Virus record (IMG/VR): IMGVR_UViG_2541047430_000021
DNA: 12,502 nt
DNA from: a virus
Taxonomy: Duplodnaviria; Heunggongvirae; Uroviricota; Caudoviricetes
Strand: one strand, 5' to 3'
Position 1 is the stretch's first letter. The number at the start of each line of letters is the position of its first letter. Below, in pieces: positions 2,036 to 12,502 of the stretch. The position numbers and the translations under genes were made by a program. The notes beneath the pieces were generated by a model. It was not told the origin of the DNA and made no database searches. It worked only from the letters and a program-made list of their open reading frames with translations.

Positions 2036-2063
2036 AGGAAAAAACAAAACCCGCCGAAGCGGG
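2036..2063 (-). terminator. Rho-independent terminator of the hok transcript
   Basis: On the minus strand: CCCGC-UUCG-GCGGG hairpin (plus 2050-2063) followed by UUUUGUUUUUU (plus 2036-2049), about 70 nt after the hok stop. Confidence 0.75.
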
Positions 2064-2133
2064 TTAAGTGCGGGTGCGTTGAGGATGCCTGATTCATCAG
2101 AGGTGGCGAGGGATTTCTCCCTCGCCGGGTCTC

Positions 2134-2289
2134 TTACTCCTCAGGTTCGTAAGCTGTGAAGACAGCGACCTCCGTCTGGCCGGTTCGGATTCGTACCTCG
2201 CAGAGGTCTTTCCTCGTTACCAGTGCCGTCACTATGACGGTAATACAGATGACGATCAGGGCGATTAACATCGCCTTTTGCTGCTTCAT
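2134..2289 (-). CDS. hok: Hok-family type I toxin (51 aa membrane peptide)
   Basis: Translation MKQQKAMLIALIVICITVIVTALVTRKDLCEVRIRTGQTEVAVFTAYEPEE is near-identical to HokD/RelF as I recall it. AGGAG SD 9 nt upstream of ATG at 2289-2287. An in-frame upstream ATG at 2346 with its own GAGG SD could be a mok-like start. Confidence 0.9.
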   Translation of the reverse strand: MKQQKAMLIALIVICITVIVTALVTRKDLCEVRIRTGQTEVAVFTAYEPEE

Positions 2290-2338
2290 AGCCTGCTTCT
2301 CCTTGCCTTTCGGCGCGTAAGAGGCTAACCTACATGTG

Positions 2339-2410
2339 TCTAGCATGAAATTGGCCTCAGATTAATGTTAGGCGTCTTGCAGGACGCGTAATGTTAACTG
2401 GGGCTTTTCT
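2339..2410 (+). ncRNA. putative Sok-like antisense RNA (hypothesis)
   Basis: Plus-strand region antisense to the SD and ATG at 2346-2362. Candidate promoter TTGCCT(2304-2309)-17 nt-TAACCT(2327-2332). Hairpins at 2372-2387 (GCGTC-TTGCAG-GACGC) and CCUCAG...CUGGGG, followed by a U-rich tail CUUUUCUCU. Boundaries are inferred, not measured. Confidence 0.3.
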
Positions 2411-2464
2411 CTGTCTGCCTTACGGTGGCATGCCCGAGGCAGACAGCCTCAAGCACCCGCAGCA

Positions 2465-2492
2465 ATTCTACTTAACTCTCGCTTTACCGCAA
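2465..2492 (-). promoter_or_regulatory. putative sigma70 promoter of the hok mRNA
   Basis: Minus strand: -35 TTGCGG (plus 2487-2492), 16-nt spacer, -10 TAGAAT (plus 2465-2470). Predicted start near 2457 gives a ~410-nt transcript ending at the terminator. Confidence 0.45.
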
Positions 2493-2534
2493 ACCGTTTT
2501 TACCCGATATGGGAATTCCCATATCGTAATGAAT

Positions 2535-2639
2535 TCAGTTCCCTAGTCGATCCATCAAAAACACAACCAGGCAGTAAACGCCCACAACAGCAATAACAGC
2601 CAGCGCACCTTCCATTGCCAGTGAAATATCATCCGACAT
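2535..2639 (-). CDS. small hydrophobic peptide (34 aa, single predicted transmembrane helix)
   Basis: ATG at 2639-2637 preceded by AAAGGAGGG SD; translation MSDDISLAMEGALAVIAVVGVYCLVVFLMDRLGN. Below the ORF-track size cutoff. Confidence 0.45.
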   Translation of the reverse strand: MSDDISLAMEGALAVIAVVGVYCLVVFLMDRLGN

Positions 2640-2754
2640 ATTCCCTCCTTTGGTGTGAATCCCGGCGAACGTTTTTACCCCCACCGACAAATAACATATA
2701 CTAAAAAATCAATAGCTATAGCAACGCCTGTAATTGCAAAGGCTTCAGGCCAGA

Positions 2755-3399
2755 TCATTGGCGCACCTCCTGCGGCGGTTCTGGTAGCGGCATCCAGTCG
2801 GTTACATTGCGGCTCTGTGTTTCGAAAAATTCATCACCATTACGGACTACATCAAAAAACTCACCGTCTCGATATTGCGCATAAAGAACGAATGCGCCAT
2901 CACATAAAATAATTACGTGCTGACCATCATCCGGCATTCGCTCACTACAGCTTATCCAATCATCCAGAGTTACCGGATAGTTGGTTGACGTTTCCGAGAT
3001 TTCCCGAAAATTATTGGTTGACGAACCCTTTTTTTCCCGAAAGTTTCCAGCCTGAAGCATGGCGGCGCTGTCTGGCGGGGCAGCATATAGCGGCACGTAT
3101 ATTTCCGGTTCCTTATCAGCACCGGGTTGCTCTTCCAGTGAGAATGTCTTTCCGGTAAATCGATTCATATAAAGCACGGGCTCTGCTTCCAGCGAAGCCT
3201 GAGCAACAAGGGCCAGTGCTAAATCCAACTCAATTGCCTCGAGAGAATTTTTGAATGCTGTCTGTTTTACTGCAAATTTCATCGCCTTTACATTTTCACT
3301 AACATGACTGATTAACTGCTCTTTTGTAAAAGTGGTCATCTCATTCTCCTTTGATGCGAATGCCAGCGACAATTGAAGCCTGATAGCTAATTCACTCAC
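2755..3399 (-). CDS. DUF551-like prophage protein
   Basis: C-terminal W/P-rich region (DDWISCSERMPDDGQHVIILC...WMPLPEPP) resembles DUF551. GTG at 3399 overlaps the upstream stop (GTGA) with an AGGAGG SD; an alternative ATG at 3339 has an AAGGAG SD (194 aa). Confidence 0.65.
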   Translation of the reverse strand: MSELAIRLQLSLAFASKENEMTTFTKEQLISHVSENVKAMKFAVKQTAFKNSLEAIELDLALALVAQASLEAEPVLYMNRFTGKTFSLEEQPGADKEPEIYVPLYAAPPDSAAMLQAGNFREKKGSSTNNFREISETSTNYPVTLDDWISCSERMPDDGQHVIILCDGAFVLYAQYRDGEFFDVVRNGDEFFETQSRNVTDWMPLPEPPQEVRQ

Positions 3400-6333: not shown

Positions 6334-6759
6334 TTAGTGCATCACCACAGCATTCCCTGCCGGGCCGCCGCGATTCATCTGGTCATACAAAACAACCGCT
6401 GACGCAACAAAATCATCGACATCCTTCACCAGCCGATCCCTCCGTTCGACGATCTCACGGTAATATTCAGAACTGTGGCTGCGCATACGGGCCACCAGCA
6501 AAGGCGGCATCGCCTTTTCGATCGCCGGTAACAGAGCCTGCATTTTTTCAACAGCATCAGGGGTGTCTTTATCCAGCCAACGGAAAATTTTCTGGGTATT
6601 ACGGGCCAGGGCTTCCGGATGGCTGTCGTCATACAGTTCCGGGAACGTCATTCCCAGCTCGAAATACGCTTTGGTAATTTTCGCAGCCGGTACTTTTTCG
6701 CCGTCCGGATGCGCCCAGACATTCATCGCCATGCGGATGTGTTCATGCTTGATTTTCAT
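6334..6759 (-). CDS. YdaT-like (CII-like) prophage regulator
   Basis: Begins MKIKHEHI..., as I recall Rac YdaT does; 141 aa. ATG at 6759 overlaps the upstream stop (ATGA); GGAG SD. Confidence 0.75.
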   Translation of the reverse strand: MKIKHEHIRMAMNVWAHPDGEKVPAAKITKAYFELGMTFPELYDDSHPEALARNTQKIFRWLDKDTPDAVEKMQALLPAIEKAMPPLLVARMRSHSSEYYREIVERRDRLVKDVDDFVASAVVLYDQMNRGGPAGNAVVMH

Positions 6760-7058
6760 GAATCAACTCCATCAGATAAGCATGCACTACAATCACCTTC
6801 AGCATGAACTACATGTGTTTGCCCCAAACGAATGCCGCTCGCATACTCAGGCCAAATAAGCTCCCAATCATGGGGTCGTAGCTCCGCCCTACTTACTTGG
6901 CCTTCCGTCGCAGATTCGATCATAAGGGCGCGGGTTGGAGATATAGCTGTTCGTCCAGACGCCATTTGCGATAAGTAAGATGGCGATACACCAAGTCTGG
7001 CCGCGAATTTCTTAGCATCACCAACCCTTAATGATTTAATAAACTCTTTTAATGTCAT
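6756..7058 (-). CDS. Cro-like HTH protein (YdaS-like), first gene of the early-right operon
   Basis: Translation MTLKEFIKSLRVGDAKKFAARLGVSPSYLSQMASGRTAIS... is a Cro/CI-type HTH. GAGGAAGG SD before ATG at 7058. Divergent from the regulator gene. Confidence 0.8.
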   Translation of the reverse strand: MTLKEFIKSLRVGDAKKFAARLGVSPSYLSQMASGRTAISPTRALMIESATEGQVSRAELRPHDWELIWPEYASGIRLGQTHVVHAEGDCSACLSDGVDS

Positions 7059-7064
7059 ACCTTC

Positions 7065-7150
7065 CTCGGTTTAGTGTTTTTTTGCGAGTTTAGTGTTTAA
7101 TAAACCATTAAGTCAAGTATTTGCTTGTTTAGTGATTACTAAAGATAATT
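7065..7150. promoter_or_regulatory. OR-like divergent promoter/operator region
   Basis: Minus-strand promoter: -35 TTGACT (plus 7111-7116), -10 TAAACT (about 7087-7092). Plus-strand promoter: -35 TTGCTT (7121-7126), 17 nt, -10 GATAAT (7144-7149). GTTTAGTG motifs at 7069, 7088 and 7127; near-palindromes GTTTAATAAAC (7094-7104) and TTTAGTGATTACTAAA (7128-7143). Confidence 0.5.
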
Positions 7151-7155
7151 ACCAC

Positions 7156-7527
7156 ATGCAAAAAAAAGAAATTCGCCGTTTACGTCTCAAGGAGTGGTTT
7201 AAAGATAAAACTCTGCCACCCAAAGAGAAGAGCTACCTATCTCAACTAATGAGTGGGAGAGCCTCGTTTGGAGAAAAGGCTGCCAGAAGAATAGAGCAAA
7301 CATACGGGATGCCGGAAGGGTATCTGGATGCGGAATACGCAGAACAACCGGGGGGTTCTCCACCACATGCAGGGTTAACGTCTAATCAACTGGAATTATT
7401 GCAGATTTTTTCAGCCTTCCCTGAGGATGAGCAACGCCAGATAATCAGCGAGTTAAAGCAGAAAAAAGAATCAATGGAAGATCTCATAGCGAGATGGATT
7501 GCGGCGCAAAAATGCCGCCGCGCCTGA
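7156..7527 (+). CDS. CI-position HTH regulator (PaaR2-like), probably leaderless
   Basis: ATG at 7156 lies ~7 nt after the GATAAT -10 and has no SD. HTH-like segment KSYLSQLMSGRASFGEKAARRIEQTYGMPEGYLD. The ORF-track start at 7093 is a GTG inside the operator region. Confidence 0.65.
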   Translation: MQKKEIRRLRLKEWFKDKTLPPKEKSYLSQLMSGRASFGEKAARRIEQTYGMPEGYLDAEYAEQPGGSPPHAGLTSNQLELLQIFSAFPEDEQRQIISELKQKKESMEDLIARWIAAQKCRRA

Positions 7528-7547
7528 GTTATAAAACCGGAGGAAAC

Positions 7548-7739
7548 ATGAATAGAGCCCTTTCACCAATGGTTTCTGAATTTGAAACCATTGAACAAGA
7601 AAACAGTTACAACGAATGGCTGCGTGCGAAAGTAGCAACGAGCCTTGCAGATCCGCGCCCAGCAATTCCCCATGACGAAGTTGAGCGCAGAATGGCAGAA
7701 CGCTTTGCTAAGATGCGCAAGGAACGGAGCAAGCAGTAA
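7548..7739 (+). CDS. paaA2: ParE-associated antitoxin (PaaA2-like, 63 aa)
   Basis: GGAGG SD 5 nt before ATG 7548; 63-aa product directly upstream of the ParE toxin gene (1-nt gap). Length and arrangement match my recollection of the three-component paaR2-paaA2-parE2 system; the symbol is assigned from memory. Confidence 0.7.
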   Translation: MNRALSPMVSEFETIEQENSYNEWLRAKVATSLADPRPAIPHDEVERRMAERFAKMRKERSKQ

Positions 7740-7740
7740 A

Positions 7741-8019
7741 ATGTTACCCGTGTTATGGCTTGAAAGCGCAGATACCGACCTAGATGATATAACTAGTTAT
7801 ATTGCTCGTTTCGACATAGATGCGGCTGAACGCTTATGGCAGCGATTAAGGGGTTGTGTGCTGCCGTTATCCGAACATCCGTATTTATACCCACCAAGCG
7901 ACAGAGTACCTGGCTTGCGTGAGATTGTAGCCCACCCTAACTATATAATTCTATACCGCGTAACAACATCAAGCGTTGAAGTAGTAAACGTGATCCACGC
8001 AAGACGCCAGTTTCCCTAA
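7741..8019 (+). CDS. parE2: ParE/RelE-superfamily toxin (92 aa)
   Basis: Translation MLPVLWLESADTDLDDITSYIARFDIDAAERLWQRLRGCVLPLSEHPYLYPPSDRVPGLREIVAHPNYIILYRVTTSSVEVVNVIHARRQFP shows the ParE/RelE pattern (PG-RE-V--P-YIILYRV----V-V--V-HARR). Confidence 0.85.
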   Translation: MLPVLWLESADTDLDDITSYIARFDIDAAERLWQRLRGCVLPLSEHPYLYPPSDRVPGLREIVAHPNYIILYRVTTSSVEVVNVIHARRQFP

Positions 8020-8043
8020 CTTTCACTACCAATAGAAACATAA

Positions 8044-9529: not shown

Positions 9530-9718
9530 ATGGAAACGTTATTACCAAACGTTAATACGTCTGAAGGTTGTTTTGAAATTGGTGTCACTATCAGTAACCC
9601 TGTATTTACTGAAGATGCCATTAACAAGAGAAAACACGAACGGGAGCTATTAAATAAAATATGCATTCTTTCAATGCTGGCCCGTTTACGTCCGATACAA
9701 AAAGGATGCTGGCAATGA
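9530..9718 (+). CDS. hypothetical early-left protein (62 aa)
   Basis: GAGGA SD 7 nt before ATG 9530; stop TGA 9716-9718 overlaps the next start (ATGA). Confidence 0.5.
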   Translation: METLLPNVNTSEGCFEIGVTISNPVFTEDAINKRKHERELLNKICILSMLARLRPIQKGCWQ

Positions 9719-9906
9719 ATACAGCATTTGCACTTGTTCTGACAGTTTTTCTTGTTTCCGGAGAGCCAGTTGATATTGCAGTCAGTGTTCACAGGACAAT
9801 GCAGGAGTGTGTGACTGCAGCAACCGAACAGAAAATTCCCGGTAACTGTTACCCGGTCGATAAAGTTATTCACCAGGATAATAACGAAATCCCGGCAGGT
9901 CTTTAA
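9715..9906 (+). CDS. hypothetical small protein (63 aa) with signal-peptide-like N-terminus
   Basis: ATG 9715 with AAGGA SD 8 nt upstream; MNTAFALVLTVFLVSGEPVD... has a hydrophobic N-terminus and two Cys in the mature part. Confidence 0.5.
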   Translation: MNTAFALVLTVFLVSGEPVDIAVSVHRTMQECVTAATEQKIPGNCYPVDKVIHQDNNEIPAGL

Positions 9907-9998
9907 AACAGTTCCGTAATAAACATCCGATTTCATTCTTATATGCCAGCAATGGCAGGGATTTGTTCACCCTTAAATCTGTAATGAGGTAAAACAAA

Positions 9999-12470
9999 AT
10001 GAGTAAAGTCTTTATTTGCGCCGCCATTCCGGACGAACAGGCAATAAAGGAAGAAGGTGCCGTCGCTGTAGCCACTGCCATTGAAGCCGGTGATGAACGT
10101 CGCGCCCGCGCAAAATTTCACTGGCAATTCCTGGAACATTATCCGGCTGCTCAGGACTGCGCTTATAAATTTCTTGTTTGCGAGGATAAACCCGGTATAC
10201 CCCGCCCTGCCCTCGATTCCTGGGATGCTGAATATATGCAGGAAAACCGCTGGGATGAGGCGTCTGCTTCCTTTGTCCCGGTCGAGACTGAATCCGATCC
10301 GATGAACGTCACTTTTGACAACCTGGCCCCTGAAGTACAGAACGCTGTCATGGTTAAGTTCGACACATGTGAAAACATCACTGTTGATATGGTGATTAGC
10401 GCACAGGAATTGTTGCAGGAAGACATGGCAACATTCGACGGCCATATCGTTGAAGCGTTGATGAAAATGCCAGAAGTTAACGCTATGTATCCGGAGCTTA
10501 AGCTGCATGCCATCGGGTGGGTTAAGCATAAATGTAAGCCTGGTGCCAAATGGCCCGAAATTCAGGCAGAGATGCGCATCTGGAAAAAACGTCGCGAAGG
10601 TGAACGCAAGGAAGCCGGAAAATACACGTCTGTTGTTGATCTCGCCCGCGCCAGAGCCAATCAACAGCACACTGAAAATTCAACAGGAAAAATCAACCCG
10701 GTCATTGCTGCCATTCATCGCGAATACAAGCAGACATGGAAAACACTGGATGACGAACTGGCCTACGCTCTCTGGCCTGGTGATGTGGATGCCGGAAACA
10801 TTGACGGCAGCATCCATCGCTGGGCAAAAAATGAAGTTATCGACAACGGCCGCGAAGACTGGAAGCGTATCTCGGCATCAATGCGCAAACAGCCTGATGC
10901 CCTTCGCTACGACCGCCAGACTATTTTTGGCCTTGTCCGTGAACGTCCGATCGACATTCACAAAGACCCTGTGGCACTGAACAAATACATTACTGAATAC
11001 CTGACTACAAAGGGCGTGTTTGAAGATGAAGGAACAAATCAGAGCGCAACTGACACTCTCTCGTCGCCAGTACCAGAAACTGATGCAGTGGAAACGGCAA
11101 TTCCGGACAACGAAAAAACCGAATGCAAAGTGGAAGTCGAACCATCTGTAGAGCGTGAGGGGCCGTTCTACTTCCTCTTCACCGACAAGGATGGCGAAAA
11201 ATACGGTCGCGCAAACAAACTTTCTGGTCTGGATAAGGCGCTGGCTGCCGGGGCTACTGAAATCACAAAAGAAGAATATTTTGCCCGAAAAAATGGCACA
11301 TACACAGGCTTACCGCAAAATGCAAATACCGCACAAAATTCTGAACAACCAGAACCGGTAAAAGTTACCGCTGACGAAGTAAAGAAAATTATGCAGGCAG
11401 CCAATATCAGCCAGCCTGACGCCGAGGAACTGCTTGCAGTATCACGTGGTGAATTTGTTGAAGGGATTAGCGACCCGAATGATCCGAAATGGGTTAAGGG
11501 GATCCAGACCCGCGATTCTGTGAACCAGAACCAGCAAGAAACGGAACAGAACGACCAGAAAGCGGAACAAAACAGCCCAAATACGCAACAAAACGAGCCA
11601 GAAACGAAACAACCTGAACCAGTAGTGCAACAGGAACCGGAAAAGATCTGCACCGCCTGCGGTCAGAGCGGTGGCGGCAACTGCCCTGATTGTGGTGCGG
11701 TGATGGGTGACGCAACATACCAGGAAATATTCGATGGAGAGAATCAGCCTGAAGTTCAGGAAAATGATCCGGAGGAAATGGAAGGTACTGCACATCAGCA
11801 CAAGGAGAACACTGGCGGCAATCAGCATCATGCCAGCGATAGTGAAACTGGCGAGGCGTCAGATCCCTTAATTAAGGCGAACGGTCATCATAATCTCACA
11901 TCCACCAGCAGAGCGGGGATTCATCTGATGATCGATCTTGAAACCATGGGAAAAAATCCCGATGCCCCGATTATCTCAATAGGTGCAATATTTTTCGATC
12001 CGCAAACCGGAGATATGGGACCGGAATTTAGTAAGACTATCGATCTGGATACTGCTGGCGGAGTCATTGATCGGGACACCATGAAATGGTGGCTTAAACA
12101 ATCACGCGAAGCGCAATCTGCCATTATGACCGATGAAATCCCGTTAGATGATGCACTGTTACAATTGCGGGAATTTATCGACGAAAACTCCGGTGAATTT
12201 TTTGTTCATGTCTGGGGAAATGGAGCCAACTTCGACAACACGATTTTGCGCCGTTCATACGAACGGCAGGGGAGCCCCTGCCCGTGGCGTTACTACAACG
12301 ATCGCGATGTACGCACAATCGTTGAGCTGGGGAAAGCCATAGACTTCGATGCCAGAACGGCTATTCCATTCGAAGGTGAGCGCCATAATGCACTTGATGA
12401 CGCCCGTTACCAGGCAAAATACGTTTCAGCTATCTGGCAAAAACTGATCCCGAGTCAGGCTGATTTTTAA
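9999..12470 (+). CDS. prophage exonuclease (RecE position) with C-terminal DEDDh/DnaQ-like 3'-5' exonuclease domain
   Basis: 823-aa ORF with GAGG SD. C-terminus has the three DEDDh motifs: IDLETMG, VWGNGANFDNTIL, HNALDDARYQAKY. Internal CTACGQSGGGNCPDCG zinc-ribbon-like motif and a Q/E/N-rich low-complexity linker. Confidence 0.85.
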   Translation: MSKVFICAAIPDEQAIKEEGAVAVATAIEAGDERRARAKFHWQFLEHYPAAQDCAYKFLVCEDKPGIPRPALDSWDAEYMQENRWDEASASFVPVETESDPMNVTFDNLAPEVQNAVMVKFDTCENITVDMVISAQELLQEDMATFDGHIVEALMKMPEVNAMYPELKLHAIGWVKHKCKPGAKWPEIQAEMRIWKKRREGERKEAGKYTSVVDLARARANQQHTENSTGKINPVIAAIHREYKQTWKTLDDELAYALWPGDVDAGNIDGSIHRWAKNEVIDNGREDWKRISASMRKQPDALRYDRQTIFGLVRERPIDIHKDPVALNKYITEYLTTKGVFEDEGTNQSATDTLSSPVPETDAVETAIPDNEKTECKVEVEPSVEREGPFYFLFTDKDGEKYGRANKLSGLDKALAAGATEITKEEYFARKNGTYTGLPQNANTAQNSEQPEPVKVTADEVKKIMQAANISQPDAEELLAVSRGEFVEGISDPNDPKWVKGIQTRDSVNQNQQETEQNDQKAEQNSPNTQQNEPETKQPEPVVQQEPEKICTACGQSGGGNCPDCGAVMGDATYQEIFDGENQPEVQENDPEEMEGTAHQHKENTGGNQHHASDSETGEASDPLIKANGHHNLTSTSRAGIHLMIDLETMGKNPDAPIISIGAIFFDPQTGDMGPEFSKTIDLDTAGGVIDRDTMKWWLKQSREAQSAIMTDEIPLDDALLQLREFIDENSGEFFVHVWGNGANFDNTILRRSYERQGSPCPWRYYNDRDVRTIVELGKAIDFDARTAIPFEGERHNALDDARYQAKYVSAIWQKLIPSQADF

Positions 12471-12502
12471 TGTTCAACCGTCGCCAGTTGTCGTTGATAT
12501 TC
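12470..12502 (+). CDS. possible start of next early-left gene (3' partial)
   Basis: ATG at 12470-12472 overlaps the exonuclease stop (TAATG); only 11 codons (MFNRRQLSLIF) are visible. Confidence 0.2.
   Translation, partial: MFNRRQLSLIF

Follow-up and report, generated by a model that had tools for sequence, protein, structure and literature searches.

What is the short hydrophobic reading frame that lies directly upstream of hok in a lambdoid prophage of Escherichia coli: a second small toxin or an accessory membrane protein? The question arises from a preliminary description of a 12,502-nt stretch of viral DNA, here called the window, which reported an unannotated 34-aa ORF with a near-perfect Shine–Dalgarno (SD) sequence close to the hok promoter and offered these two identities for it. 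The window is identical in sequence to a lambdoid, Qin/Rac-like prophage found in E. coli O157:H7. Its genes are arranged on the minus strand in the order YdaS-like, YdaT, HTH replication protein, DnaC-like ATPase, DUF1627, DUF977, DUF551, the ORF in question (ORF34) and hokD, followed by a hypothetical gene, DUF968, RusA and Q. The other side of the prophage carries relBE, ydfC, dicB and an exonuclease gene truncated by an IS3-family element, so that the prophage is probably defective; the YdaS/YdaT pair, the type II toxin–antitoxin pair relBE, ydfC and dicB fall within window positions 6335–8020 and 9532–12502. The features at the centre of the analysis are as follows.

2643–2651, minus strand: Shine–Dalgarno sequence AAAGGAGGG of ORF34, read from the sequence
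2535–2639, minus strand: ORF34 (clade A), encoding the 34-aa microprotein MSDDISLAMEGALAVIAVVGVYCLVVFLMDRLGN, which is WP_001278450.1, ECs_5710 and XECs145
2465–2492, minus strand: hok promoter, read from the sequence, with a −35 box TTGCGG (2492–2487), a 16-nt spacer and a −10 box TAGAAT (2470–2465)
2284–2458, minus strand: hok mRNA leader and sok antisense region (Rfam RF01794, 116.9 bits, E 1e-27)
2134–2346, minus strand: mok (70 codons), with hok (hokD, 2134–2289) inside it (HOK_GEF, E 2e-23)

ORF34 begins with an ATG at 2639 and ends with a TGA at 2537–2535. The ATG is preceded at 3 nt by AAAGGAGGG (2651–2643), whose AGGAGG core is at 4 nt; the SD sequence is as near to perfect as had been described, and it is largely unpaired in the predicted minimum-free-energy fold. 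The peptide has a single hydrophobic helix at residues 11–29, GALAVIAVVGVYCLVVFLM, with a mean Kyte–Doolittle hydropathy of 2.72 over the 19 residues, and a computed net charge of −3, in keeping with the one helix and acidic N-terminus of the earlier account. The stop codon is 42 nt from the hok −35 box, and the ORF does end close to the hok promoter, as had been stated. The 5′ end of the hok mRNA is placed at about 2458, in agreement with the end of the Rfam match, and a promoter scan found a site equivalent to the hok promoter in phage Tritos. Just 3′ of hok, at the end of its transcript, there is a sub-threshold Rfam match to the Hfq-binding sRNA isrK (2044–2125, minus strand; 27.7 bits, where the gathering score is 50; E 9e-4).

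The claim that this ORF is unannotated does not hold. RefSeq places a CDS on exactly 2535–2639 of the minus strand, the hypothetical protein WP_001278450.1, and in strain Sakai the identical peptide is ECs_5710 of prophage Sp6, situated between ECs_1518 (DUF551) and the mok gene. An annotated CDS underlies the ORF34 match in 30/30 rows sampled from 676 matching E. coli records, and the peptide is also present in UniRef and GenBank. Relatives belonging to clade B (see below) are labelled 'membrane protein' in several E. coli records and 'conserved hypothetical protein' in REL606 (ACT39199.1). The 126-nt segment comprising ORF34 and its SD sequence is found in 674 of 5426 complete E. coli genomes as 1469 copies, all of them full length, with a median of 2 and a maximum of 5 copies per carrying genome. 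A literal search of the literature for the peptide and its accession returned nothing from main texts; the match was to a supplement. As a gene call, ORF34 is already known from RefSeq and from published RIBOseq, and the genuinely unannotated small ORF of the locus is a different one, ORF27, which is described below.

XECs145 appears as a translated candidate gene of E. coli O157:H7 Sakai in supplementary tables published by Hücker et al. (2017; PMC5597208), with 54 codons at 1550761–1550922 and the sequence MCYLSVGVKTFAGIHTKGGN-MSDDISLAMEGALAVIAVVGVYCLVVFLMDRLGN. Its coordinates differ from those of ECs_5710 in the current record by a constant offset of 144 nt, and it maps to that gene; XECs145, ECs_5710 and WP_001278450.1 are 100% identical in peptide sequence and occupy the same place between the DUF551 gene and mok/hok. 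The published values, which are not assignable to one locus or to the ATG at 2639 because Sakai has several identical copies and an upstream start was assumed, are an RNA RPKM of 79.1, a footprint RPKM of 346.1, an RCV of 4.35 and a coverage of 0.99 in LB; 121.3, 150.1, 1.14 and 0.84, respectively, in the BHI control; and 73.3, 1.1, 0.01 and 0.37 under cold and osmotic stress (PMC5597208). Ribosome footprints across ORF34 in culture, the signal by which the preliminary description had suggested that translation be checked, are therefore on record, with the reads mapping to multiple copies and the assumed start being a different one. The authors predicted an inner-membrane location, and their classifier returned the verdict 'real'; as XECs145 was defined with an upstream non-canonical start, no SD sequence was scored for it, and the same list includes many weakly supported ORFs (PMC5597208). 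Their treatment of XECs145 does not include the ATG with AAAGGAGGG, the family structure or the linkage to hok. Here, the true start of ORF34 is fixed as the ATG with its near-consensus SD sequence. From the hydropathy and the published prediction, we infer that the peptide is probably located in the inner membrane.

Homologous loci were drawn from IMG/VR, phage and plasmid collections and the species representatives of GTDB, using as queries a 51-aa extended ORF and a 74-aa fused allele (see below). The sample, which is highly redundant and contains few independent substitutions, comprises 205 copies that reduce to 30 haplotypes of a 26-codon core. No indels occur in this core, the position of the stop codon is fixed (TGA in all haplotypes except for one TAA) and the ORF34 frame is the sole one of the six that is open in 30/30 haplotypes. 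The pN/pS ratio is 0.16 within clade A and 0.29 within clade B, rising to 0.48 between clades at a pS of ~0.6. The other two forward frames give ratios of ~0.6–1.4 or undefined values; the lowest reverse frame, which shares third positions with ORF34, gives 0.27/0.42 but is interrupted by stop codons in 30/30 haplotypes. At the 13 codons that were unconstrained by the search pattern, variable sites are distributed over codon positions 1/2/3 as 10/2/11, which is the signature of a hydrophobic coding segment. Moreover, the SD sequence and the start codon are retained in all clades, and the 60-nt flanks are essentially unalignable between clades. The reading frame is thus conserved in homologous prophage regions, with the same core length, a fixed stop and pN/pS of 0.16–0.29 within clades, and the preliminary description is not refuted on this point. 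We conclude that ORF34 is a genuine protein-coding gene under purifying selection.

The family divides into clade A, which is ATG-started, has an acidic N-terminus and includes the member in the window, and a set of GTG-started, B-type clades. The clade B genes start with their GTG after a GGAG-type SD sequence; an example, MLVLKCALAIAAVMAIYCLAVVLMDRLSD, is found in phages Tritos, Evi, mEp460_ev081 and HannyBb and also in E. albertii, E. ruysiae and S. flexneri. A diverged form, MLAALKGFVAILAVVAIYCLVVVLMDRLSD (P0093), likewise has a GTG start and a GGAG-type SD sequence and lies 155 nt 5′ of mok/hok, and another, MLIIKGVLAIVIVVAIYCLVVTLWERLSD (P0094), is known here as a peptide alone. Conserved across the family are a YCL core in the helix and a C-terminal LMDRL motif. 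The N-terminal charge is opposite in clades A and B; proteins with one shared function would then be predicted to differ in membrane topology. At the DNA level, the cores of different clades are at most ~75% identical or cannot be aligned.

The host range of the family is narrow. A degenerate-pattern scan of 185,579 species genomes placed ORF34 only in Escherichia and Shigella and on three MAG contigs, whose sequence is the same E. coli-like one; this GTDB species scan gave mostly chance matches, and those in Kribbella and similar genomes were rejected by context. Among phage isolates, tblastn recovered only four clade B phages and no clade A member, and among plasmids, nine ORF34 matches, three of which are to clade A at 91–94% identity. 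Nothing beyond the ORF34 family came up when 1.84 billion representative proteins were searched with a profile. The clade A, B and B′ peptides have no Pfam match at E ≤ 10, and the best matches in NCBIfam, PHROG and PADLOC have E ≥ 0.02 and are to unrelated families. Comparison with the Hok protein of the window by BLASTP gave no alignment at E ≤ 100, and ORF34 has no match to HOK_GEF (PF01848). ORF34 belongs to a family of microproteins that is uncharacterised, confined to Escherichia and Shigella and under clear coding constraint.

Between ORF34 and the last large gene upstream of it lies a second small reading frame.

2755–3399, minus strand: DUF551 gene, the last large gene upstream; RefSeq places its start at 3339
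2675–2758, minus strand: ORF27, a 27-aa hydrophobic ORF, MIWPEAFAITGVAIAIDFLVYVICRWG, that is without RefSeq annotation

The ATG of ORF27 overlaps the stop codon of the DUF551 gene (ATGA), and ORF27 is translationally coupled to that gene. In the ORF27 family, which comprises 149 copies and 27 haplotypes with one in-frame 6-nt length variant, an ATGA or GTGA overlap with the stop codon of the upstream gene is present in all homologues, and the upstream genes contribute at least six unrelated C-termini. The pN/pS ratio of ORF27 is 0.29, against 1.0 and 1.9 in the other frames. ORF27 invariably precedes clade A ORF34, B-type ORF34 genes are usually without it, and in 933W an ORF27 homologue is found directly before hokW. 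The P0052-type DUF551 proteins were considered as possible ORF27 fusions, and this was rejected.

A hok leader follows within 500 nt of ~188 of ~200 ORF34 copies (~94%). The remaining copies are at contig ends or belong to a small 'MERLSD' group of variants that has hok replaced; a few ORF34-B copies are also without hok (L145, L321). In clade B, the conserved module starts just upstream of the SD sequence, and the genes further upstream differ. When hok loci were instead sampled by their leader sequence, 120 stretches were obtained, of which ~47 were ORF34-bearing loci found before, and a further 70 loci were analysable. Upstream of hok, these additional loci carry an ORF34 variant (4/70), only a 3′ remnant of ORF34 (20/70), only ORF27 (18/70), only the palindrome described below (4/70) or none of these (24/70). 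Overall, ~40–55% of hok loci of the ORF34-linked subfamily lack ORF34. The many hok loci with no ORF34, or with only its 3′ remnant, imply that the gene is dispensable, and we regard it as a common companion of this hok lineage that was probably present ancestrally.

The loci that retain only the last codons of ORF34 point to repeated deletions through the gene. The A-type remnants consist of GGTGAACTGA and the palindrome (L218, L214, L275); the B-type remnants, ..TTATGGATCACCTTTCTGATTGA (L209, L207, L204, L243), form a 6-codon mini-ORF behind AAGGAG, ~80 nt 5′ of the hok mRNA start. The hok/sok segment is 90–96% identical between clade A and clade B loci (window 2134–2480 compared with L003, L004 and L335), whereas the ORF34 alleles of the same loci are ~75% identical or undetectable by blastn. 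The high identity of hok set against the low identity of ORF34 indicates a sharp mosaic junction at the hok promoter. In the window, an 11-nt direct repeat is present on either side of the gene.

2670–2680, minus strand: direct repeat GGGTAAAAACG, upstream copy
2495–2505, minus strand: direct repeat GGGTAAAAACG, downstream copy

The two copies bracket a segment consisting of ORF34 and the palindrome, and GGGTAAAAACG is also the junction between the end of ORF27 and the hok promoter in loci without ORF34. This arrangement suggests insertion or recombination at that point.

With its coding status and its linkage to hok observed, the reading that we favour, with a probability of about 0.6, is that ORF34 is a real gene whose product is a single-pass inner-membrane microprotein serving as a non-toxic accessory of the prophage hok cassette. 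The peptide would insert into the inner membrane as a non-toxic accessory peptide of the cassette, and at native levels it would be harmless to the cell. Of the two identities offered in the preliminary description, a membrane-targeted accessory protein is the better fit to what has been found, a real single-helix membrane-peptide gene tied to the hok locus.

The alternative that survives best, unlikely as we judge it to be, is that ORF34 is translated but functionless and is carried along with hok, its apparent constraint reflecting hydrophobic codon bias and the close relatedness of the copies. The family is young, with a range limited to one pair of genera, and deletions have removed the gene repeatedly; the sample is highly redundant, with few independent substitutions, and the RIBOseq list also contains many weakly supported ORFs. 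The linkage itself could be mere hitch-hiking, only ~40–150 nt separating the gene from hok. Against this stand the three diverged clades, which share an open frame, core length, stop position, SD sequence and start codon across a between-clade pS of ~0.6 at a pN/pS of 0.48, a pattern of conservation that the alternative frames do not have. In addition, 1469/1469 E. coli copies are full length.

The expression of ORF34 bears on a further alternative, that the gene acts in cis. A sigma-70-like scan found no promoter of its own in the window on the minus strand within 260 nt upstream, even at 8/12 matches. Most likely, ORF34 would be the last gene on the transcript of the prophage early-right operon (…DUF977-DUF551-ORF27-ORF34), with independent translation from its own strong, unpaired SD sequence. 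RNA is detectable in uninduced cultures, which is unexplained if a repressed early promoter is the only one. In clade B, a motif TTGAA[T/G]-N17-CATATT ends 37 nt upstream of the ORF34 GTG, at 2457–2485 of the Tritos locus L003 and at other clade B loci. The CATATT hexamer is invariant in 52 haplotypes and the −35-like hexamer is present in 43/52, with at least five unrelated spacers of constant length. This suggests a real but weak candidate promoter, with a weak match to the consensus, from which ORF34-B transcripts would run into hok.

The segment between ORF34 and hok in clade A contains a further element.

2505–2526, no strand assigned: perfect 22-nt palindrome, CGATATGGGAATTCCCATATCG, between the ORF34 stop codon and the hok −35 box

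As RNA, the palindrome forms a 9-bp hairpin with a free energy of −14.5 kcal/mol and a z-score of −4.2, and a U tract follows it on neither strand. In clade A, the ORF34 stop codon is 8 nt from this hairpin. Other hok loci that have no ORF34 also contain the palindrome, with variable spacing to the hok −35 box; at L272, it carries a compensatory change. A 3′ stabiliser, a terminator, a protein-binding site and a recombination site are all possible roles.

It is these features that make a cis-acting role conceivable, in which the translation or transcription of ORF34 modulates read-through into hok or insulates the hok promoter and the peptide is incidental. In every clade, ORF34 lies immediately next to the hok promoter, the stop codon falling 12–42 nt before the −35 box; in clade B, there is no terminator between ORF34 and hok and the candidate promoter lies 37 nt upstream of the GTG, and in clade A, translation ends 8 nt from a stable hairpin. 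We nevertheless think a purely cis-acting role quite unlikely. It needs no conservation of amino acids, but second codon positions have been conserved, as have the YCL core and the LMDRL motif, between clades with DNA that is only ~75% identical or cannot be aligned. The clades differ in how far the stop codon lies from the −35 box and in whether they have the hairpin, and hok loci that have lost ORF34 retain a normal promoter. A cis effect may exist in addition to a role of the peptide.

The proposal that ORF34 is a second small-toxin gene, a type I toxin beside hok silenced by an antisense RNA from the plus strand, has fared worse than the accessory-protein reading and we judge it very unlikely. 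ORF34 is short and hydrophobic, has a single helix and adjoins a bona fide type I system, and it falls within the generic size and hydrophobicity range of type I toxins (membrane peptides of <~60 aa). Weak promoter-like sites are present on the plus strand at 2615–2642 and 2674–2702, the first of which could give an RNA antisense to the SD sequence. However, such sites are no more numerous than chance allows (3 in total, against an expectation of 1.5 ± 1.1), they lie in coding sequence, and the unalignable clade A and clade B flanks indicate that an antisense element is not conserved; the only RNA found by Rfam at the locus is sok. Membrane-active type I toxins are usually neutral to cationic, whereas ORF34 is anionic, with its net charge of −3. 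It matches neither HOK_GEF nor any other toxin family, its SD sequence is unpaired in the predicted fold, and its RCV of 4.35 in exponentially growing cells in LB is unlike that of silenced type I toxins.

The last alternative concerns the junction of ORF27 with ORF34.

2678–2682, minus strand: run of five G residues (G5) at the ORF27 stop codon

In rare alleles with six G residues (P0008, P0009), ORF27 and ORF34 are fused into one 74-aa ORF with two helices; these alleles may be real or may be homopolymer sequencing errors. The run is G5 in 21/21 haplotype groups that have this ORF27 end (IMG/VR and RefSeq), and in one further clade A haplotype, L056, ORF27 ends differently (..CRWE). The idea that a two-helix protein of 74 aa has ORF34 as its C-terminal half, split in O157 by the loss of 1 nt from the G run or joined by −1 ribosomal frameshifting at GGGGG-UAA, is made conceivable by the continuous ORF of the G6 alleles, by the invariable presence of ORF27 before clade A ORF34 and by the fact that a −1 slip on the run enters the ORF34 frame, but it is highly improbable given the uniformity of G5 and the rarity of the fused alleles, the occurrence of ORF27 alone next to hok with its own stop codon and a non-slippery TGGGGATAA end, the strong SD sequence and ATG that ORF34 itself possesses, and the usual absence of ORF27 from B-type loci.

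The preferred reading, a non-toxic accessory membrane peptide, can be set beside three known kinds of system. Like Hok/Gef with Sok (PF01848, RF01794), ORF34 encodes a small single-helix inner-membrane peptide, and it belongs to the same cassette; unlike Hok/Gef, to which it has no sequence similarity, it is translated in growing cells and is anionic, and neither an overlapping leader ORF like mok, nor a long folded leader, nor an antisense RNA was detected for it. The small inner-membrane regulatory proteins of E. coli, such as AcrZ, MgrB, MgtS and CydX, usually bind a larger membrane partner. ORF34 resembles them in having fewer than 50 residues, one transmembrane helix, its own SD sequence and no enzymatic domain, and differs from them in being non-homologous, prophage-borne, multi-copy and genus-restricted. 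It shares with prophage morons its dispensability, its mosaic distribution, its place beside the accessory gene hok and, in clade B, a candidate promoter; morons are defined by an autonomous transcription unit, and for the clade A gene in the window no promoter (within 260 nt) or terminator of its own was found, the hairpin being without a U tract.

For an accessory peptide of this kind, the most plausible role would be in tuning Hok-dependent membrane damage or the timing of lysis, or in some other membrane process of prophage life. A functional link to Hok is speculation; it is prompted by the hok linkage and by the part that a prophage hokW-sokW system plays in promoting phage release after induction, hokW-sokW having been found to aid the release of prophage Sp5 after induction (PMC8621323). 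A bolder version would hold that Escherichia prophage hok/sok is not a two-part system at all, one or two ancestral upstream microproteins (ORF34, and ORF27) binding Hok in the membrane, or assisting it, as a protein-level brake or helper that sets the timing of Hok-assisted lysis after induction; we consider this a long shot.

What the present analysis adds to the existing gene call is that the ORF34 family is tightly tied to a position 5′ of hok in prophages, as is ORF27, a second microprotein gene that is still unannotated. The two may be protein components of prophage hok modules. If they do not modulate Hok, ORF34 would be one more conserved small membrane protein without an assigned function. 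If they do, the textbook hok/sok system would gain a protein component in its prophage form, and this would bear on the timing of lysis and release by EHEC prophages.
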